Assembly (NCBI GenBank): GCA_964347045.1 | Contig: CAYFXC010000005.1 | Coordinates: 27,227 to 91,226, forward strand | Direction: 5' to 3' | From: an uncultured archaeon | GTDB lineage: Archaea; Asgardarchaeota; Hermodarchaeia; Hermodarchaeales; Hermodarchaeaceae | Length of the DNA stretch: 64,000 nucleotides | Shown here: piece by piece, positions 1-27,563 of the stretch | Position numbering within the stretch: position 1 is the stretch's first letter | Layout of the letters: every line of letters starts with the position of its first letter | The notes under the pieces: model-generated | What the model was told of the DNA's origin: nothing | Databases searched by the model: none | The model's input: the letters and a program-made list of their open reading frames with translations, nothing else | Position numbers and translations under genes: made by a program

Positions 1-854
1 ACAACTTGTGCAACCTTCCAGGCTGAGCTAAGGTGGGGCGCATTTGCATTGGGTCGTTGTGCCCAAGTAACTTTGAACTCCTGGTCGGACTGAATGTCCA
101 TCCAATTCCCAATAATCAGGGGAAGATGGCGGTTTGTTATGCCTAGCCATTCAATGGACCCAAACCATGTCGGGTCAACGGGAATCCATTGGTTTCGAAT
201 CCAGACTTCACTCCAACCATGTCGTTCCCACTTTTTACCCAATGAAGCAAAGCCTGAAATCAGCCGAGCAGGTATTTTCCGGGCACGACATAATGCCGCA
301 AACAACGCTGCGTACTCCGTACAGTCACCAACCCGCTTTTCTATCGCATAAGCTGCTCCTCGCTCATGACGTTGAGGTTCATAGCGGAGGATTTCTGTAA
401 CTGTTCGCATCGCTGCCTTAATGAACGGAACTATCTCTGCATGCTCTTTCGCAATATCACGGGCTAAATCCTTAATCAAGTGATGATGCGATTCGATGAA
501 GTTTTCGGGTTTTATATAGGATTGGAGCTGGCTAGGAATGGACTGATTTTGGACAAACGAGGCTGGTTGATATTGGATTGACCGATTCCGTACTAATGCA
601 GTATATCCGCAGGTGAAGGTTTCGTCTCCCGGTAATCTGTGACATGTAATATCCAACCATTGATTTCCAACTAAATCCGTGGCTTGCAGATCCATAGTTG
701 ATTGGGGATTGAGGTCAATTAGCTGTTGGTAAGGTGGAACGGGAGTAGGAACTGCAATGAAGATTCGAACATTTGTCAAAGGAGCCGTTGCTTTGTTGGT
801 AATTGTGGTTTGGTAGGTTACGCGATGTGTAAGAATCACTGAGCTCGAGGTCAT
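1..854 (-). CDS. Transglutaminase-like (Cys-His-Asp) domain protein, truncated by the window edge; absent from the ORF track
   Basis: Manual translation from ATG 854 gives MTSSSVILTHRVTYQ...GDCTEYAALFAALCRARKIPARLISG...ERHGWSEVWIRNQWIPVDPTW, open to base 1. The ATG overlaps the TGA of the upstream ORF (ATGA). Confidence 0.9.
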   Translation of the reverse strand, partial: MTSSSVILTHRVTYQTTITNKATAPLTNVRIFIAVPTPVPPYQQLIDLNPQSTMDLQATDLVGNQWLDITCHRLPGDETFTCGYTALVRNRSIQYQPASFVQNQSIPSQLQSYIKPENFIESHHHLIKDLARDIAKEHAEIVPFIKAAMRTVTEILRYEPQRHERGAAYAIEKRVGDCTEYAALFAALCRARKIPARLISGFASLGKKWERHGWSEVWIRNQWIPVDPTWFGSIEWLGITNRHLPLIIGNWMDIQSDQEFKVTWAQRPNANAPHLSSAWKVAQV

Positions 855-1237
855 TGTTTTTGCCCGTTATCCTTGTTTTGTACATCGTTATCGGCATTGG
901 CGTTCTCGAGAATAATGACTCTACCACCAGGTGATTGAGATGTGCTAGGTTGAACATCACCGAGGAGAATAACTCTAGAGGGTGCAGTGGAATCGGTTTC
1001 TTTCTGTTCGTTTCGTGGTCCAAGAAAACGAGTGAAGTGAGGCGGATGGGCTTTAACGCCCCGAACTATTGTCCCTGGGCAGATGCCCTGACCCGTTTCG
1101 AGAAATAGAGCACGGCAGGAAGTACAAATGTAGCTACCGCAGGTAGTACAAATCCACCATTGGCTACGTGCCCTTGGGAGTGGAACTTGTGAATCACAGG
1201 CCATACACTTGATATGCGAGGCCCCGTGGATGCTCAC
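851..1237 (-). CDS. RING-like Zn-finger protein (putative E3) with disordered C-terminal tail
   Basis: CxxC-x15-CxxC-x4-CxxC-x11-CP...H pattern (CMAC...WWICTTCGSYICTSC...GICPG...H); translationally coupled to both neighbours. Confidence 0.7.
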   Translation of the reverse strand: MSIHGASHIKCMACDSQVPLPRARSQWWICTTCGSYICTSCRALFLETGQGICPGTIVRGVKAHPPHFTRFLGPRNEQKETDSTAPSRVILLGDVQPSTSQSPGGRVIILENANADNDVQNKDNGQKQ

Positions 1238-1452
1238 TCCTCCTTTTCCTCCTGCTCAGAATGTTTTCGAATGCGGTGAACTGTAACAGAAAAATGAGGC
1301 GAGAAGTTTGGGGGGCGTTCTTCTATAAAAGGAATGTCTCGTTCACGTAAAATTACAATTCGGTTCTCTTTTGATGGATCTTTTAATTGAGGTTGAACGT
1401 CATTCTCTGATTCTTGAGGGGTTTCTTCCTTGTCTGGTGACTTCTCCGACAT
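1234..1452 (-). CDS. Small acidic/disordered protein with RIVIL motif
   Basis: 72-aa ORF inside the operon; GGAGAG-like SD; overlaps the next start. Confidence 0.65.
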   Translation of the reverse strand: MSEKSPDKEETPQESENDVQPQLKDPSKENRIVILRERDIPFIEERPPNFSPHFSVTVHRIRKHSEQEEKEE

Positions 1453-1466
1453 TGATTACTTCTCTC

Positions 1467-2216
1467 CTAGCCATCATCGGCTTCATCCAGAATTCGTCCA
1501 GTTGATTTTTTCTCTGGGTCATCCAGAATCCGAGGAGGTCTTCTATTTGGTTGTTCTTGAGATTGTTCCAGTGATAGAATTTGTACTCGTCCCTGTCTAG
1601 AAGATGCAGGTGAAGTGACTTGGTGTCGTACTTCCCAGAACCGATCTAGGGTTTCGACGATGTTATTTGTGTCTTGCTCATACCATGTCATAGCGGTGCT
1701 GTTTAGTCCATGGTCAGATTGAAACTGAGATGGTGGTTCTACTCGATCTGGTTTTAACAATACAAAGAAAGGCAAATCCTCTAAAATTCGGTCGAGTTCA
1801 CCTCGAACAGAATAACATGCATGACCTGTTCCACTGGTAGCGAGCCGGGGATGATATAGGGGGGTCTCTGCTGCGGGTCGGATAATGCCGATGTTCTGAG
1901 GATACTCTCGTGGTAAATCAAAGACGAATCGATGTTCATATCGAATGGCACCTTCATCAGTCAACGATTTTGGCTGGCGGACAAACCCAGGAAGATTGCG
2001 CATGGTAAATCGAATACGTTTGTAGGCTCCATCTTTGTATCGACCAATAATTTCAACAGTAAAATCGCGGTTACTCCACCTTGTGTTCTCACGTTGGGGC
2101 GGATCCGGGTACCATCCGCGTCTTCCGTACAGATTATTCATCGCGTCAAAAAATGTATGAATTTGAGTTTCAACTCGGGCATTGAAGAGCTCGGGTGAAA
2201 ACACAGGCCGCGTCAA
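1467..2216 (-). CDS. Ubiquitin-conjugating enzyme (UBC/E2)-fold protein
   Basis: FDLPREYP...TPLYHPRL...GHAC (Cys134) and GLNSTAMTWY follow the E2 pattern F-x-LP-xx-YP...T-xx-YHPN...G-x-IC...PLN-x-AA-xx-Y. Confidence 0.8.
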   Translation of the reverse strand: MTRPVFSPELFNARVETQIHTFFDAMNNLYGRRGWYPDPPQRENTRWSNRDFTVEIIGRYKDGAYKRIRFTMRNLPGFVRQPKSLTDEGAIRYEHRFVFDLPREYPQNIGIIRPAAETPLYHPRLATSGTGHACYSVRGELDRILEDLPFFVLLKPDRVEPPSQFQSDHGLNSTAMTWYEQDTNNIVETLDRFWEVRHQVTSPASSRQGRVQILSLEQSQEQPNRRPPRILDDPEKKSTGRILDEADDG

Positions 2217-2827: not shown

Positions 2828-5722
2828 ATGACAACTAGGCATGAGACAACCCCTTTAACCCCACAGGTTGTGTTTCGTTCAATTCGTTTAGTGAACTTTG
2901 TCATTCATCGCGAAACCTCCATCCAGCTCGATAACTCGCCAATTGTACTCATAACAGGCTCGAATGGTAGCGGTAAAACCTTGATTCTTGATGCCCTTTT
3001 ATTGGCTATTGGAGTTGAATCCCGTCGGGCTCAACGCCAACGTAACTCTGCCTTCATTGGGCGTTTCGGTAAATATGCTGAGGTTGAGCTGGAACTCAAT
3101 AATTTCCAGCTCAATGGTCGACGAGTGCTACGCAGTCCTGATCCCGCTTTAAGCAAGCTCCTGGAAAGAGATATAGTATCAATTCGCCTGCGAATTCATG
3201 ATTCGAATCGAATTTCATATTGGTTGAATGGACACCGCTCAGTGAATGGTCATCAAATAGCACGGAAAGATATTCGAAGACTCTTCCAAGCTGCTGGTCT
3301 CTTTGGTGAATCCCCGCTAGCCGTAACGGAAGCAGAGACATTAGACCATTTTGCCTCTCAGTCCCCTCGACGGAAATTCGAGACATTGCTCAATGAAACT
3401 GGTTTACGGAATTGGATGGAAAAACTCGAAGAAGCCCGTTTGCTCGTACTCCAGGCTAAAGCAAATATCAAACCTCTTGAATACCGAATTCGTCACGAGG
3501 AACAACGGCTGCAAGTATTGAAAGCTGCTTATGAAGCGTATGAACAAAAACAGCAGCTCCAAAGACGACAAAAACAACTCGATATTGAAGCTGCTTGGGC
3601 TGAAGTTGTATATCGTGAAGAACTGGCAGCTCAGCTTCAATCACAAATTACAACATACAATAAACAGCTATCAGTTGAAAATAAGAAACTAGCATCGCTT
3701 GATCAACGTAAAGTTGAGTTAAAATCAAAGTTTGATTCGATTGAAGCAAAACGTGAGAAATTACTCACAACTATGAACTCTCTACGCGATCACCAAATGC
3801 AAACGCAAGGGCATCGACAAGGTTTAGAAAATGAACTCGAAGTCCTTACTGCTCGGAGTGAACGGTTTGCAAAAGATCACAAACCAAGCGAAGCAAACGT
3901 TGCAAATATTCAGAAAGAATTAGATTCCCTTGTGGCTAAACGGAATCAATTAGATGATCAGCTTACTCAAATTCGGCAAGACATTGCGTCAACAGAAGAA
4001 AGGATTTTCACGCAACCCCAGCGATATCCACAGTTTGAGGAAACCATTCTCCGCGCTTGTCAGCGTTATCGTTCCGAACTAGACAAATTAGCTCTATCGG
4101 ACTCAGTCATTGGACCACTTTTCACCCTTATCCGAATGAAACCCGAATATGTTCATCGCGAAACTGCAGTAAAGCTTGCTTTGGGTCGTTATGTTTATGC
4201 ATTTATCGCGTTAAATCGGGCTGTCTTTATTGAAGCAAAAAACCTCTATGATCGACTCTGGCCTCACGAAAAACCTGATTTAGTTGTTGCCCGTACTAAC
4301 CCAACTACTGCGATTACCAAAGAACGACCTCCCGTTTCATCACCGGTAATAGGCTGGGCTGCAGATCTCATTGAAGGTGATGTTTACGCTGTTAGCTTTC
4401 TTAGTCGTGTCGTGAATACAGCGATCGCTGAGGAGGGAGCCGATCCCAACACTGTGGTAGATGCCTCTCAACAGCTCAAAGGAAATATTATCACTAGTGA
4501 TGGCAACAGCCACTATCTCCGAATAGGAGCTTTTACTCGACCTCCTCGTCCGGTAACAGTAGGCTTTGATATTTCACTCGATGAGCTTGGATTAGCACAA
4601 GACACCAATGAATATCGTCGTATACTGCGAGAACTTCGAGAACAAGAAGCACAGCTTATGCGGGATCGAATGCGAATAAATTCTGAAATAAGTCAACTCC
4701 GATCCACACTTCAAGACTTACAGCAGGAGCGCACCCTCAAGCTTTCTCAGGAAGAAAGAAATAGTAGAGTCATTGATTCAGAACGCCGGATCAATGAGTT
4801 AAAACAACAAATACTGGAGCTTGATACTAGAAGCGACACTCTAAGCCAAGAATATCAAGATTGTAAATCGGATTTATTTCCGTTTAATTCACGCCAACAA
4901 AAAGTCACTGAGCAACTTCAAAATCTCGAATCTCAGCGGTTACGGCGTCAAGCAGAAATTGATCGTATATCCGCGGAAGTCAAACAACGAGAAGATGAAC
5001 ACCTTCATCTTATGAAACAAACCAAAGATTTTCAAAAAGCAGCAACCAAACTTGCAGATCGTCCTGATGTCGTTCGTGAGCCTGCTGCAATTCGTGATGA
5101 TCAAATACAGGTTCAAGCAATGATCGATACTATTACAGCAACTGCCAAGGATCATCAAGCCTTTGAAGAACAAGAAAAAGTTGTATCACAACTCCAAGAA
5201 TATATAAAACAACGTCAACTTCATCTTGAGAATCTTATGACCGACGTTGATCGACGACTCGTCGAATGGCGACGTCAACTCGAAGAGACTGTTGAAACTC
5301 TTAACCAACGAATGAATCAATTACTCAGCCACTTTCTCAAGCAAGTCAAACTTCTTATTCGGTATCCCGATGAACCCAGCCGAGCTGAGCTCCATCTTCA
5401 ACTTGCTATCAACCGTAAAGGGGATTGGAGAACCTATCAAGAAATGTCCGGTGGCGAACGGGTTCTGGCTACCCAAACCTTCATACTTGCCCTTCACACG
5501 TTAGCAAAAAGCCCACTCCATGTGATCGACGAATTTACCCAACGCCTTGATGAAGCGAGCCGCGCAGCGATTTTAAATGTCGTTCAAAGGGCCCTCGACC
5601 TGACCCAGCAAGAATCGCTAATACATCCCCAGTTTCTTTTAATGGCTCCATCAACGGTCGGGCTCCAAATACCCGAGACTATGAATCATGTAGTTCTGAT
5701 TAAAGGACAGGTGAAAAAATAG
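2828..5722 (+). CDS. Smc5/6-like SMC ATPase (coalescin/Smc5-6 clade)
   Basis: Walker A GSNGSGKT; long coiled coils; central hinge (VIGPLFTLIRM...ALGRYVYAFI); signature MSGGERVLATQTFILAL; Walker B SPLHVIDEF; QFLLMAP in place of the H-loop, as in Smc5/6 (QFxxxTP). Confidence 0.88.
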   Translation: MTTRHETTPLTPQVVFRSIRLVNFVIHRETSIQLDNSPIVLITGSNGSGKTLILDALLLAIGVESRRAQRQRNSAFIGRFGKYAEVELELNNFQLNGRRVLRSPDPALSKLLERDIVSIRLRIHDSNRISYWLNGHRSVNGHQIARKDIRRLFQAAGLFGESPLAVTEAETLDHFASQSPRRKFETLLNETGLRNWMEKLEEARLLVLQAKANIKPLEYRIRHEEQRLQVLKAAYEAYEQKQQLQRRQKQLDIEAAWAEVVYREELAAQLQSQITTYNKQLSVENKKLASLDQRKVELKSKFDSIEAKREKLLTTMNSLRDHQMQTQGHRQGLENELEVLTARSERFAKDHKPSEANVANIQKELDSLVAKRNQLDDQLTQIRQDIASTEERIFTQPQRYPQFEETILRACQRYRSELDKLALSDSVIGPLFTLIRMKPEYVHRETAVKLALGRYVYAFIALNRAVFIEAKNLYDRLWPHEKPDLVVARTNPTTAITKERPPVSSPVIGWAADLIEGDVYAVSFLSRVVNTAIAEEGADPNTVVDASQQLKGNIITSDGNSHYLRIGAFTRPPRPVTVGFDISLDELGLAQDTNEYRRILRELREQEAQLMRDRMRINSEISQLRSTLQDLQQERTLKLSQEERNSRVIDSERRINELKQQILELDTRSDTLSQEYQDCKSDLFPFNSRQQKVTEQLQNLESQRLRRQAEIDRISAEVKQREDEHLHLMKQTKDFQKAATKLADRPDVVREPAAIRDDQIQVQAMIDTITATAKDHQAFEEQEKVVSQLQEYIKQRQLHLENLMTDVDRRLVEWRRQLEETVETLNQRMNQLLSHFLKQVKLLIRYPDEPSRAELHLQLAINRKGDWRTYQEMSGGERVLATQTFILALHTLAKSPLHVIDEFTQRLDEASRAAILNVVQRALDLTQQESLIHPQFLLMAPSTVGLQIPETMNHVVLIKGQVKK

Positions 5723-6513
5723 TGATTGCTAATGATACATCAGCATTTCTTCGGGCTTTTCCCCGTCGTAAAGCTTGGTATGATAGTTTCCAAAATAACT
5801 ACAAACGAAACCGTCTAACACGTTTTGGTACAAAAAGTGTCATTATTACCCTTTGGAATCTGACTAAAAAATATGAAGTTGCACTCAAACATCATGATGT
5901 GGTTCCTGTTAAAGAAGCGGAATTAGACCGTGAGGAGGTCACTGATGCTTTTCGTGTTCTCGATACTCCCTGGGAACGCAATCTGGATGGGCGATTCTAC
6001 TACACCCTCGCCTCAATGCAACACCGCCGTGACGCTCAATTCGCTGCACCTGAAATTGCTCCCGAAGAATGGATTTCTCAATTCGCCAATGAGGTTAAAC
6101 GTCGAGCCACTCCTATACTCTTCTTAATTAATCAAGAGCGTACCATCCCTCCCTTTGATTTGCCTCCAGCTGATATGCCAATGGCAATGGATGTAGCACC
6201 ATCTCGAGATGATCAGCAGGCAATACGGAGACATCGAGTTCGCTTCGAAGAAATTTCAATTGCTAGGCTTGATGCTCGTCGAACTTCCATTCTGGAACGT
6301 CTAAGAGGAAAACGATACAGCTTCACAGCATTATCCAATCTTCTAACTAACTGGGAATTAGATTTGTTGAGCCAGATGATCCGTGATGATTTGCTTCCTG
6401 CTACATTCGAGAAAACCGCTATTGTCTTTCAGAAGCCATCGCAATCTCAAAAAGCTGGTATTAGATTTAGTGCTGTCGCCATTCCTGCAAAAAATCATGA
6501 GGAGATTCATTGA
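5722..6513 (+). CDS. Putative kleisin/Nse4-like subunit with C-terminal winged helix
   Basis: GTG overlaps the SMC stop; helical N-terminus, Pro/acidic linker and C-terminal WH-like segment (LLSQMIRDDLLPATFEKTAIVF); function inferred from context. Confidence 0.5.
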   Translation: MIANDTSAFLRAFPRRKAWYDSFQNNYKRNRLTRFGTKSVIITLWNLTKKYEVALKHHDVVPVKEAELDREEVTDAFRVLDTPWERNLDGRFYYTLASMQHRRDAQFAAPEIAPEEWISQFANEVKRRATPILFLINQERTIPPFDLPPADMPMAMDVAPSRDDQQAIRRHRVRFEEISIARLDARRTSILERLRGKRYSFTALSNLLTNWELDLLSQMIRDDLLPATFEKTAIVFQKPSQSQKAGIRFSAVAIPAKNHEEIH

Positions 6514-7160
6514 CAGTGACATCTGATCAAGCACCTCAAGACTCAATTTCACCTTCCTCTGAGGAAAACGAAGAAGAATTCGAGCAACATCATCTGTTAG
6601 GTCAACTCTTTGCTGCTCTCACTGCTCGATTTCGTAATGAGGATGGTCAATTGACCATCGGTGTCAAACGACAGGATTTGCTTCAAGCCCTTCATATTAA
6701 CAAAGCTGGATTAACTCGTCTACTCGATTTACTTCGCCAACAGATAACTCCGCTCGGATTGGAATTAGTTGAATATCGGTTAGGTCGAGATACACTCTAT
6801 TGTATCCGTACAATCTATGGAGTTCCTGGAGAACTCACAGATCCCGAATACGCAGTCCTTGGTGTCATAATTTCGACCATAGAACGGGCAAGCAAACATC
6901 GTCGTCCTCGCAGAGTTGCAACAAAAGACATCGAAACTATTCTCGTTGCTCGGGGACGCCTATCCCGCTACCAGCTAGATAAAATACTTCGACGTTTAAC
7001 TGAACTAGGTTACATCACACGAACAGCACGACGAATTGTATATGGTCCACGGCTGGAATTGGAATTTGATGCTGAACGTCGCGAAGCCATTTCTAACGCC
7101 GCTACTCTTTTTCTTGCGGGTGCAATTGCTGAATCGGAGGACATAAAGAATGAAACTTGA
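6510..7160 (+). CDS. KITE (tandem winged helix) protein, Nse1/Nse3(MAGE)-like
   Basis: LRQQITPLGLELV, YAVLGVIISTI and LDKILRRLTELGYI...YGPRLELEF recall Nse1/MAGE motifs (xGPRAxxE); lies in the SMC operon. Confidence 0.75.
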   Translation: MTVTSDQAPQDSISPSSEENEEEFEQHHLLGQLFAALTARFRNEDGQLTIGVKRQDLLQALHINKAGLTRLLDLLRQQITPLGLELVEYRLGRDTLYCIRTIYGVPGELTDPEYAVLGVIISTIERASKHRRPRRVATKDIETILVARGRLSRYQLDKILRRLTELGYITRTARRIVYGPRLELEFDAERREAISNAATLFLAGAIAESEDIKNET

Positions 7161-7611
7161 CCTTTCCACCGTTGGTATCAGCTGTGTTGCCTGTGGTACA
7201 CGAACAACACTCGAGCAGGCAATCCAAAATGACTGGCATCAGTGTCTCCGTTGCCAATTCTTTATTGATCCTCATTGCCTTGAAATTGTACAAAACACGA
7301 TGGGCGGAGTTTGCCCCTCTTTCAGTCAGGGAGTATCCCGGCATTCTCTACAACAAGCAGATATCCCCTCTGAACAAATCCTTATTTTCGTTAAAGATCA
7401 ATATCAGAAAGGTCGAATAGGGGTTCTCATCGACACACTCTTCTATACAAAACCATCTGCTCTTGAAAAACCTCAACATAAAAGTGAACTACAACCCCAT
7501 TTCGAAGAAGCCCTTACTCGCGAAGAAATCTGGCAACGATATGGTCTTGTATTAGTGCAACGATCCCATGGTAAATGGAAAACTTGGGAAAAAGTTGGTA
7601 GTACAGGATAA
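7150..7611 (+). CDS. RING-like Zn-finger protein (Nse1-RING-like), paralog of 851..1237
   Basis: CVAC...WHQCLRC..FIDPHC...GVCPS...H; aligns motif by motif with the 128-aa protein. Confidence 0.7.
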   Translation: MKLDLSTVGISCVACGTRTTLEQAIQNDWHQCLRCQFFIDPHCLEIVQNTMGGVCPSFSQGVSRHSLQQADIPSEQILIFVKDQYQKGRIGVLIDTLFYTKPSALEKPQHKSELQPHFEEALTREEIWQRYGLVLVQRSHGKWKTWEKVGSTG

Positions 7612-7651
7612 AATGCATTAAAGGCGGAAATTATTTACCCCCTACAGTATA

Positions 7652-8026
7652 ATGGCATCTCAATCTGTATCCATAGCGATAGGCTCGGAGCTGATGGGTG
7701 TGGTTGATGAAAAATCTCCAATTTGGGTAAAGCATGCCATCCGGCGATGGAAACAGTTCTATCATGAAATCCAATATGCTGATGGGCAAATTGATATTTC
7801 GAACCCCTTGAGTACAATCTTTCGCAACGAATCTCAAATGGCAAAATTAGCTGTTGAAGGTAGCTCTGTATCAACTGAATCTATTCAGACAAAAAAAGAG
7901 GACTCAACAAAGTCTCAACCAGAGAAGATACCTTCTTCGAAACCTGAACAAAAACAGAGTAAGGGGCGGTTTCTCTTTAAAATAAAGGAACTCCAGTTCC
8001 TTTCTACTCCGCTCAGCTTTTTTTGA
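7652..8026 (+). CDS. Hypothetical protein, possibly last gene of the SMC operon
   Basis: 124-aa ORF 40 bp after the RING gene; low-complexity S/K/E linker. Confidence 0.55.
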   Translation: MASQSVSIAIGSELMGVVDEKSPIWVKHAIRRWKQFYHEIQYADGQIDISNPLSTIFRNESQMAKLAVEGSSVSTESIQTKKEDSTKSQPEKIPSSKPEQKQSKGRFLFKIKELQFLSTPLSFF

Positions 8027-27041: not shown

Positions 27042-27563
27042 TTATCGGGCTTTTATTTTATTTTTAAGGAGTGGTATGGCTCCTCCTGCCTTAAGGTATT
27101 CAAGAAGAAAAGGAGGGATTTTTGCAAATTGATAGGTCCGTTTTGTTCGTTGGTTTGTCAGGGTGCCGCTTGAGAGCATAATTTCGATAATGTCGCCCTC
27201 ACGGATTATTTCTGGGTTCTTTGCGAGGTCAGGAAATTCAATTGCAGGAATGCCTAAGTTGAACGCGTTCCGATAAAAAATCCTAGCAAAGGAAGTAGCC
27301 ACAATTGCACCTAGACCGAGTTGACGTAGGATGGCTGGAGCTGATTCACGGCTCGAACCAATTCCAAAATGGTCATCAGCGACGATGATATCGCCAGATT
27401 TGACATTCTTAGCAAAATCGGGACGAAGATGCTCAAAAACGTAGGGCGTGATCTGGGCAATGGAGATTTTGGTCAGATGGGTGCCGGAAATAATATCATC
27501 TGTACTGATGTTGCTAGCAAACCGCCACACTTTGCCGACAATTGGTGTTTCCGACATAAGCAT
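27042..27563 (-). CDS. leuD: 3-isopropylmalate/homoaconitate dehydratase small subunit
   Basis: NISTDDII, FGIGSSRESA, SFARIFYRNAFNLG; substrate (Leu vs Lys pathway) not resolvable by eye. Confidence 0.85.
   Translation of the reverse strand: MLMSETPIVGKVWRFASNISTDDIISGTHLTKISIAQITPYVFEHLRPDFAKNVKSGDIIVADDHFGIGSSRESAPAILRQLGLGAIVATSFARIFYRNAFNLGIPAIEFPDLAKNPEIIREGDIIEIMLSSGTLTNQRTKRTYQFAKIPPFLLEYLKAGGAIPLLKNKIKAR

Follow-up and report, generated by a model that had tools for sequence, protein, structure and literature searches.

Why should three adjacent proteins of one archaeal operon carry the same kind of short hydrophobic peptide, in six copies, within tails that are otherwise strongly polar? 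The operon stands at the start of a stretch of 64,000 nucleotides (forward strand, positions 27,227 to 91,226 of contig CAYFXC010000005.1, assembly GCA_964347045.1), hereafter the window, to whose numbering positions refer unless a contig or locus is named. The window belongs to the genome bin of an uncultured Hermodarchaeaceae archaeon (G000; an Asgard bin of 2.58 Mb, 88.9% complete), and the close homologues of its proteins are labelled in public records as Promethearchaeota, Hodarchaeota, Hermodarchaeota or Odinarchaeota. The operon consists of five minus-strand genes, tightly packed or overlapping, which encode in order a predicted ubiquitin-like protein (Ubl), an enzyme resembling ubiquitin-conjugating (E2) enzymes, a 72-residue protein, a zinc-finger protein and a transglutaminase-fold protein, and the peptides fall in the second, third and fourth of these. 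An initial annotation, made from the DNA sequence alone, had taken the peptides for a repeated motif that binds the Ubl in the manner of SUMO-interacting motifs (SIMs). Compared across the protein families that carry them, the six peptides appear to be copies of one short linear docking motif that is real and deeply conserved, with a hydrophobic core ψ-x-ψ-ψ (mostly V/I, x, I, L), and the question then becomes what this motif docks on.

Six motif copies in the tails of three adjacent proteins

The six peptides quoted in the initial annotation are all present, in the three adjacent proteins and at the minus-strand places claimed for them, as checked against the coordinates. The E2-like enzyme (249 residues, 1467-2216) ends in a 51-residue tail (residues 199-249 plus the stop codon, 1467-1622), a polar linker that holds three copies, RVQIL (1575-1589), PRILD (1521-1535) and GRILD (1485-1499). 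A single copy, RIVIL (1348-1362), follows the putatively disordered N-terminal part of the 72-residue protein (1234-1452), and two more, RVILL (962-976) and RVIIL (908-922), lie in the 53-residue tail of the Cys-rich, 128-residue zinc-finger protein (851-1237). The surroundings of these copies are markedly polar, with D, E, K, R, S, T, N, Q, P and G making up 40 of the 51 residues of the E2 tail, 40 of the 53 of the zinc-finger tail and 29 of the 36 in the segment of the 72-residue protein, and nearly all of the aliphatic residues of the three tails are found within the motifs. This polar composition, together with the low conservation of the linkers, suggests that the tails are disordered.

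The core usually follows K, R or G-G and often precedes D or E, and in the window a D, E or S stands within two residues after the core in all six copies. At least three core residues are V, L or I in four of the six (VQIL, IVIL, VILL and VIIL); PRIL and GRIL contain two aliphatic residues each, and the third E2 site reads VRIL in most orthologues. None of the six cores contains an aromatic residue, and F occurs at the third or fourth position in a few distant tails. Two other uses of such a peptide were considered and rejected, namely a conjugation site of the ψKxE kind, given that the x position is occupied by R, Q, V or I in this family, and a ligand for PDZ-type recognition of the C-terminal carboxylate, given that internal copies exist and that most terminal copies have one to three residues after them.

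When each of the three tail segments was shuffled separately with its composition preserved, the pattern [VIL]x[VILF][VILF], which is observed four times in the window tails, occurred 0.56 times on average and reached four or more in 6 of 5000 shuffles. With the variant R[IV]L[DE] added post hoc, the six matches observed were reached by none of 5000 shuffles. A genome-wide scan with the pattern [VI]x[ILF]L, run over a crude set of 2712 open reading frames (ORFs), found 2670 occurrences, 22 of which are isolated by polar flanks on both sides, and 3 of these 22 islands are in the Ubl operon. A proteome-wide network of SIM-like peptides was rejected on these figures, because there are only 22 isolated islands and because most of the ten inspected outside the operon lie, as judged by eye, in ordinary enzymes or in long, apparently folded proteins, such as one that resembles ABC ATPases and has two P-loops and another that resembles FtsZ/tubulin. 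The only plausible candidate outside the operon is a 112-residue ORF (G000 C1:150749-151087), which has an isolated EVIEILE in a K/E-rich N-terminal stretch.

Conservation of the motif against divergent linkers

As a check on the peptides, the initial annotation had proposed that their conservation in orthologues be set against that of the linkers, and in all three proteins the motifs are conserved where the linkers diverge. Aligned over 25 homologues of the E2 with identities of 63-83%, the three sites have the forms GRVxIL, P[RQK][IV]L[D..] and RV[RK]IL[DE]; the first is kept in the 25, the second is found in most of them (it is absent in P0044, P0048 and P0050), and the third is mostly RVRILD, whereas the spacers vary in both sequence and length. 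Column identity in the E2 tail is 0.83 for the motifs versus 0.36 for the linkers, and the aliphatic fraction is 0.51 versus 0.05. In 11 same-genus loci, the zinc-finger tails keep [VI]x[ILF]Lx[DN] and GG[RK]V[IV]IL, the first of these followed across 12 sequences as [VI]x[ILF]L[x]D, and over these 12 sequences, with both copies pooled, the motif columns reach an identity of 0.75 and the linker columns 0.47. The 72-residue proteins of 11 same-genus loci keep [NSK][RGQ]IxIL, with a column identity over 12 sequences of 0.87, compared with 0.46 in the preceding linker. Directly after this copy comes a conserved module of 25 residues, ERDIPFEEERPPNFSPHF (residues 36-60, 1273-1347; ERDIPFxEERPPNFSPHF), whose column identity of 0.87 is the same as that of the motif.

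Position, shuffles and conservation thus bear out the claim that one motif is repeated in, and common to, the tails of three proteins. It had been described as an Arg followed by hydrophobic residues, and this description holds in part: the core ψ-x-ψ-ψ is constant, whereas the Arg is not kept in the first zinc-finger copy, where S, T and K occur.

Spread of the motif through a distinct E2 family

A profile search over 1.84 billion representatives returned 49 E2 homologues, 24 of them at E values up to 1e-30. Thirty of the 49 were examined, these being the fuller-length ones at E up to 4.6e-12; P0049, a near-family representative of the query, and the fragments P0102 and P0104-P0106 were left out within that range. 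Tails were counted after setting aside P0091 and four proteins with tails shorter than 8 residues (P0082, P0088, P0089 and P0092). P0091 has a hydrophobic, membrane-anchor-like end after a long polar tail and may be a tail-anchored E2.

Among the 25 distant E2 tails that are 8 residues or longer, 18 have the motif, where shuffling predicts 4.65±1.9, and none of 2000 shuffles reached 18. In 12 of the 18 motif-bearing E2s, the last copy ends no more than two residues from the C-terminus. Of the 24 copies in these tails, 20 have K, R or G just before the core (a basic residue in 14), and 12 have D or E just after it. Among 400 genomes of the phylum that were searched, the E2 is present in 32, with 18 of 18 genomes in family f1, 1 of 1 in f5, 2 of 2 in f20 and 10 of 12 in f21.

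The Asgard family f21 is the most instructive of these for the motif, in that its E2 is about 36% and its Ubl about 50% identical to the window proteins and its copy numbers are the same as in the window, three on the E2, one on the homologue of the 72-residue protein and two on the zinc finger. The E2 copies read GGIRII, AVRII and GGIRII-COOH, the last at the chain end; the homologue of the 72-residue protein, which is longer, has TIKIL and then E[KR]D..PPN.SPYF; and the zinc-finger copies are TVKIL and SIKVI. Orthologues of the 72-residue protein are found in the 11 same-genus loci and in families f21 and f5, and its PPN[FHY]xP[HY]F segment is also kept in f21 and in genome G022. E2 homologues occur as well in Planctomycetota and Coatesbacteria bins, where the tails end in KKVSIIE or KPKVTFL, and the E2s of high-GC, bacterial-looking contigs end in GG-V-[REKH]-I-[DEGS]. 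In the bacterial loci L074, L076, L080, L082, L053 and L058, homologues of the 72-residue protein, of the tail-bearing zinc finger (851-1237) and of the transglutaminase-fold protein were not detected by BLAST.

The motif therefore exists, is conserved, clusters non-randomly and has a wide phyletic spread. We read it as a hallmark docking motif and not as a chance pattern because of its presence in 18 of 25 distant tails, the matching copy numbers in f21 and the GG-V-x-I-[DE] ends of the bacterial-looking proteins. Judged from these sequences, it is characteristic of the C-terminus in a distinct, non-canonical family of E2s whose members occur in some Asgard archaea, Planctomycetota and Coatesbacteria. 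By the same comparison, the Asgard lineages have raised the number of copies on the E2 to three and also have the motif on the 72-residue protein (one copy) and the zinc finger (two copies). The ancestral E2 seems to have had one copy, at its extreme C-terminus.

Two of the distant genomic settings have features of their own. In family f21 (L044:9237-10964 and L047:9242-10960), a gene of 572-575 codons lies right after the homologue of the 72-residue protein, between the E2 part of the operon and the pair of zinc-finger and transglutaminase-fold genes, and its product has an inserted Cys-rich stretch and a GASGDLA segment that we take to resemble histidine/phenylalanine ammonia-lyases. The Planctomycetota genome G402 (L055 and L061) has one E2 whose N-terminus has been replaced, together with a C-terminal fragment of 66 residues, and these copies are possibly decaying.

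Identity of the carrier proteins and of the candidate receptor

The 249-residue protein has no Pfam match, including to UQ_con, and no NCBIfam match. HPR122-124 and Cys134 are nearly invariant in its family, and when a profile of the wide family was compared with the PDB, 57 of the 60 chains listed were named E2 (best E 0.0093), with PreYP...HPR...C of the profile paired with PxxYP...HPN...C of the solved E2s. The wider profile was needed for this, as a profile of the close family gave chance matches to acyl carriers only. Nearby ESM-Atlas feature clusters are labelled UQ_con (score 0.93), which we use as a lead only.

The Ubl (106 residues, 2271-2591), which is the candidate receptor for the motif, ends in PEVG plus one variable residue. 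Throughout its family Val-Gly is invariant and is followed by zero to three variable residues; in family f21 and in genomes G022 and G113 the protein ends exactly at the Gly, a pattern which suggests that C-terminal processing occurs in family f1 only. Two natural fusions, P0088 and P0095, place the Ubl N-terminal to the E2. The Ubl itself has no Pfam or NCBIfam match, and its profile found one chance match in the PDB (eS25, E 1.1). Its feature neighbours in the ESM-Atlas, again a lead only, are Kindlin_2_N, PI3K_p85B, FERM_f0, RA and TUG-UBL1 domains, all of which we take to be ubiquitin-like folds. The E2 and Ubl labels that the initial annotation gave to these neighbours are plausible in light of the HPR...Cys signature with its PDB profile match, the Val-Gly end and the adjacent genes for an activating enzyme (E1) and a JAMM-type protein.

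The zinc-finger protein is presumably binuclear, with eight conserved zinc ligands counted in its 128 residues, and it shares the ligands C11, C30, C33, C38, C41, C53 and H64 with a paralogue (7150-7611) encoded in a neighbouring operon for a structural maintenance of chromosomes (SMC) complex. Its Pfam matches are all below the cut-offs (FYVE, E 0.007, 16.8 vs 27.8 bits; IBR, E 0.045, 14.3 vs 24.3 bits), and its best PDB matches are weak ones to RING2-LDD fragments of the RING-between-RING (RBR) protein RNF31 (HOIP), at E 0.038-0.056. The domain can be called RING/IBR-like on these matches, with RING only a candidate identity. An RNF31 RING2-LDD fragment is the best solved-structure match for both paralogous fingers (851-1237 and 7150-7611), whose C-x4-C-x2-C spacing we take to be of the IBR type; no Cys of either finger aligns at the position of the RBR catalytic Cys.

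For the 72-residue protein, there is no Pfam or NCBIfam match. It may be an adaptor, as the initial annotation suggested, made up of the motif and, directly after it, the conserved 25-residue module. Both accessory proteins contain a P-H-F segment, HPPHFTRFL in the zinc finger (residues 64-72) and FSPHFSVTV in the 72-residue protein (residues 50-58), which may be a second shared element; the f21 equivalents are less alike.

A probable second Ubl system beside an SMC5/6-like module

The last gene of the operon (3-854, minus strand) encodes the transglutaminase-fold protein (Pfam Transglut_core, E 8.1e-21), which does not carry the motif. Just before the window, and convergent with the operon, are a JAMM-type gene and the gene for a 305-residue E1 of the ThiF/MoeB type (adenyl_thiF, E 2.2e-23). 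With these the operon appears to be a second, non-canonical Ubl system of this Asgard genome, next to a canonical one on contig C8 (C8:39700-46000) that comprises an 82-residue ubiquitin ending in GG, a 153-residue E2 of the HPN type, a 347-residue E1 and a 120-residue RING protein. The canonical cluster also encodes a 251-residue protein resembling ubiquitin E2 variants (UEV-like), and its neighbours look ESCRT-related by eye. The Pfam models UQ_con and ubiquitin detect the canonical pair and not the E2 and Ubl of the operon, and the tail motif was not found on any protein of the canonical cluster (ubiquitin, E2, E1, RING or UEV-like). Because the canonical proteins are without such tails, and because 3 of the 22 isolated islands of the genome are in the operon, the motif appears to be specific to this Ubl system.

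Divergent from the Ubl operon are genes (2828-8026) for SMC, kleisin-like, KITE-like and RING-like proteins, the last of these (RING2) being the paralogous zinc finger. In Asgard family f21 and in the high-GC contigs L074, L076, L080 and L082, the row SMC-kleisin-KITE-RING2-JAMM-E1-Ubl-E2 is co-directional. The SMC module is unlinked in genome G022, in Coatesbacteria G400 and in Planctomycetota G401, where the motif is still present on the E2 beside the Ubl. In the Coatesbacteria bin and in the Planctomycetota bin of L053, the genes unlinked to the Ubl-E2 locus are those of RING2 and KITE. RING2 has a conserved C-terminal domain that looks β-rich by eye.

After the zinc-finger gene of the SMC operon comes a 124-residue ORF (7652-8026) with a long polar linker and a C-terminal KGRF..K[IL]KE[IL]Q segment. 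This segment was considered as a further copy of the motif and rejected, since it looks amphipathic-helical; an orthologue with this segment conserved is found in 3 of 7 same-family loci.

Discussion

The most economical partner for the motif is, in our judgment, the 106-residue Ubl of the same operon, on which it would dock in the manner of a SIM, a UFM1-interacting motif (UFIM) or an LC3-interacting region (LIR); we hold this tentatively, at somewhat less than an even chance. The β-strand mode of binding, the partner and the consequences of binding are what we infer. Each copy would fold upon binding into a β-strand that is added to an exposed edge strand of the shared partner, and the likely contact on the Ubl would be strand β2 and the groove between β2 and α1, as for SIMs on SUMO and for the LIR/UFIM of UBA5 on UFM1. 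The tails might then hold Ubl that is free, linked to the E2 or linked to a substrate, a tail-bound Ubl could prime the E2~Ubl thioester, and the E2 and the zinc-finger protein would be able to act processively on targets that already carry Ubl, presumably at the co-encoded SMC5/6-like complex. We consider the mechanism plausible, the motif being in that case a further member of the known class of Ubl-pathway linear motifs.

The Ubl is favoured on grounds of parsimony, because the E2, the ligase (E3)-like finger and the accessory protein would all handle it. The several copies of the motif suit a partner that is itself present in several copies, such as a modifier, and no protein of the operon is more constrained than the Ubl (within the genus, 88-97% identity over 10 loci, vs 73-82% for the E2, 53-61% for the zinc finger and 45-65% for the 72-residue protein), which fits a surface used by many partners. 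In the alignment, position 25 of the Ubl, which is predicted to lie midway along β2, divides the pairs in two: with G, A or S there, the fourth motif residue is hydrophobic (9 of 9 pairs), and with Arg there, it is E, D, S or R and never hydrophobic (8 of 8 pairs).

A number of observations weigh against this assignment. The split at position 25 probably reflects a single evolutionary divergence, and many other Ubl residues differ between the two groups. Nor do the net charges of the E2 tail and of the Ubl β2-α1 region (residues 17-47, chosen by eye) show a significant complementarity, with a rho of -0.64 (p 0.06) in a smaller set of 9 pairs and of -0.39 (p 0.11) over 18 pairs, which are non-independent; for the whole Ubl domain rho is -0.02. 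The motif also departs from the known ligands of such surfaces. Seven of the 25 distant E2 tails are without the strict pattern, several of them having near-variants (RVTIEG, PKIL and PVIL); a basic residue stands before the core and often inside it, where classical SIMs have acidic neighbours; the f21 copies have K-rich flanks or the chain end and no acidic flank; and the motif is confined to proteins of the operon, whereas eukaryotic SIMs are found throughout the proteome. As for the receptor, the Pfam Ufm1 model (PF03671) has no match anywhere in the genome, and the predicted β-grasp fold of the Ubl draws on its genomic context, its C-terminus and the language-model lead. Finally, the Ubl cannot be singled out from phyletic patterns because the SMC5/6-like module, the E1 and the JAMM protein co-occur with it. 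Of the 10 E2-bearing genomes that were checked, 9 have homologues of RING2 and KITE, even where these are unlinked, and an attempt to exclude the SMC module as the partner through E2-bearing genomes that lack it failed for this reason; in the exception, G402, RING2 and KITE were not found with the queries used.

This co-occurrence also supports an unlikely alternative, in which the motif tethers the E2, the zinc finger and the 72-residue protein to a subunit of the SMC5/6-like complex (the SMC protein, the kleisin, the KITE protein or the RING-like fourth subunit) and would thereby place the conjugating proteins at their substrate, comparable to the anchoring of Nse2 on Smc5. The SMC module and this family of E2s do travel together, as the co-directional rows, the divergent neighbouring operons of the window and the nine of ten genomes indicate, and the conserved, β-rich-looking C-terminal domain of RING2 could accept a strand. 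Yet no copy of the motif was found on any protein of the SMC module, and the genomes in which that module is unlinked (G022, G400 and G401) keep the motif on the E2 beside the Ubl. Furthermore, we know of no description of ψ-x-ψ-ψ strands as a way to bind SMC, kleisin or KITE proteins, which counts against the tether, whereas such strands are the archetypal ligands of β-grasp modifiers (PMC12751080, in excerpt). A doubtful possibility, given the number of copies and their distribution, is docking on an enzyme of the cascade itself, whether the 305-residue E1, the JAMM protease or the E2 folding back on its own tail, so that the enzymes are assembled in one complex; in the last case the motif would serve self-inhibition that is relieved by the accessory proteins. 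Canonical E1s carry a ubiquitin-fold domain that docks the E2, and the ThiF/MoeB-type E1 appears too short to have one, so that the E2 would need another handle. The E1, JAMM, Ubl and E2 genes also adjoin in every complete locus seen, and what seems to be the ancestral state, one copy at the extreme C-terminus of the E2, fits an enzyme-enzyme tether. Such a tether leaves unexplained, however, why the E3-like finger and the 72-residue protein carry the motif and why it was multiplied to three and two copies, a multivalency that suits a multi-copy partner. It also counts against such a tether that the tails known from non-canonical E1s (UBA5) and from E2s bind through helices or bind the Ubl itself.

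Two further explanations dispense with a dedicated receptor altogether. Short aliphatic, β-prone segments, several to a chain and separated by polar linkers, could act as stickers that bind one another, so that the three proteins co-assemble or condense; this we regard as very improbable, because most family members have one terminal copy, which is unable to build a network, and because the conserved flanks, basic before and acidic after the core, suggest a specific pocket. That the motif is a chance resemblance or a low-complexity artefact of unconstrained tails might be argued from how common four-residue aliphatic patterns are in this genome (the 2670 occurrences noted above), but the shuffle tests, the positional conservation across families and the persistence of the motif into bacteria leave this reading practically no probability, and we regard it as refuted by the conservation data.

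Whichever partner is right, in Asgard archaea and some bacteria an SMC5/6-like complex is accompanied by a private Ubl cascade, and the enzymes of this cascade have a SIM-shaped motif in common. In eukaryotes it is Nse2 that connects Smc5/6 with SUMO, whose signalling depends on SIMs. If the motif does bind the Ubl, the reading of a ubiquitin-like tag through such motifs, and with it the connection of this reading to SMC5/6, would predate the eukaryotes. A preprint on how SMC complexes evolved regards the RING of Nse1 as an innovation of eukaryotes and Nse2 as having been recruited to the complex (10.1101/2024.01.07.573240). A bolder proposal, which we think rather unlikely as a whole, is that a SUMO-style, non-covalent reader code predates eukaryotes and is present in a prokaryotic Ubl system wired to an SMC5/6-like complex, in which an E2 with built-in Ubl-binding strands would be its own, intrinsic E3, with later spread of the motif in Asgard archaea to a zinc-finger ligase and a small adaptor. 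The E2 motifs would then close the E2~Ubl thioester and hold a second Ubl, a task that in ZNF451 falls to its two SIMs and in Nse2 to its SIM-like regions, and the multiplication of the motif in Asgard archaea would allow multivalent reading of Ubl-modified targets in the chromatin complex. Even with another partner, the motif provides a handle with which to find the docking site of an uncharacterised E2 family.

Comparison with known Ubl-reading motifs

Supplements aside, a literature search turned up no publication on this family of E2s or on the motif in their tails. Comparable sets of prokaryotic genes for E1, E2, Ubl and JAMM proteins are known from the Caldiarchaeum E1/E2/RING system (PMC5654768) and from bacterial antiviral operons that resemble ubiquitination systems (PMC10557695); the abstracts of both papers mention no tail motif.

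The ubiquitin-fold modifier UFM1 is the first of the eukaryotic modifiers to compare. Mature UFM1 has Val-Gly at its C-terminus. Nine Asgard clades are reported in a 2026 paper to have UFM1-like proteins (PMC12962969, in excerpt). The LIR/UFIM of UBA5 and the shuffled ATG8-interacting motifs (AIMs) of C53 bind UFM1, at its β2/α1 surface, and also ATG8 (PMC10183829, in excerpt), and like the Asgard motif they are short and lie in the tail of a cascade enzyme, a tail that is probably disordered in the Asgard case, the known ones binding the modifier at β2/α1. However, these motifs depend on an aromatic residue (Trp in C53, according to the same excerpt), whereas the Asgard motif is purely aliphatic, and it is the E1 that carries the motif in UBA5, whereas here it is the E2, beside a Ubl without a Pfam Ufm1 match. 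An identity as UFIM or LIR was therefore rejected, the Asgard motif being without an aromatic anchor.

The initial annotation had likened the zinc-finger protein to SUMO-targeted ubiquitin ligases (STUbLs). It does resemble RNF4 and Slx5-Slx8 (PMC8161396, abstract) in joining a zinc finger to two tandem motif copies, in a region that here is probably disordered. The label is nevertheless unsupported, as the finger is only RING/IBR-like, with RING a candidate identity, and is encoded in the operon of the very Ubl that it would read, so that no cross-talk between two modifiers is indicated. Cross-talk with the canonical ubiquitin system is possible, though gene order ties the finger to the non-canonical operon.

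The closest likeness is to the SIMs themselves. A SIM is described as a four-residue core with at least three V, L or I and an acidic stretch, which is disordered until bound and then adds a β-strand beside β2 (PMC12751080, in excerpt), and the form of the Asgard motif fits this description in its core and, less uniformly, in its acidic flank and its probably disordered setting, as the initial annotation had held. The same excerpt places SIMs on SAE2, a subunit of the SUMO E1, and on the ligases PIAS/Siz, RanBP2 and ZNF451 (which has two), and SIM-like regions on Nse2/Mms21 at Smc5/6. The Asgard motif differs in having a basic residue before or inside the core, in being without the acidic stretch in f21 and in being confined to its operon; it is the E2 itself that carries it, usually at the very C-terminus, and its candidate partner is not a recognisable SUMO, having a Val-Gly end and no Pfam match. 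It agrees with SIMs in its aliphatic core, its presence on the pathway's own enzymes, its tandem copies and its link to an SMC5/6-type complex and, less uniformly, in its often acidic flank and its setting in probably disordered tails. By its sequence, then, SIM-like in the core of four of the six copies and only in part in the acidic flank, the motif probably works most like the SIMs on the enzymes of the SUMO pathway.

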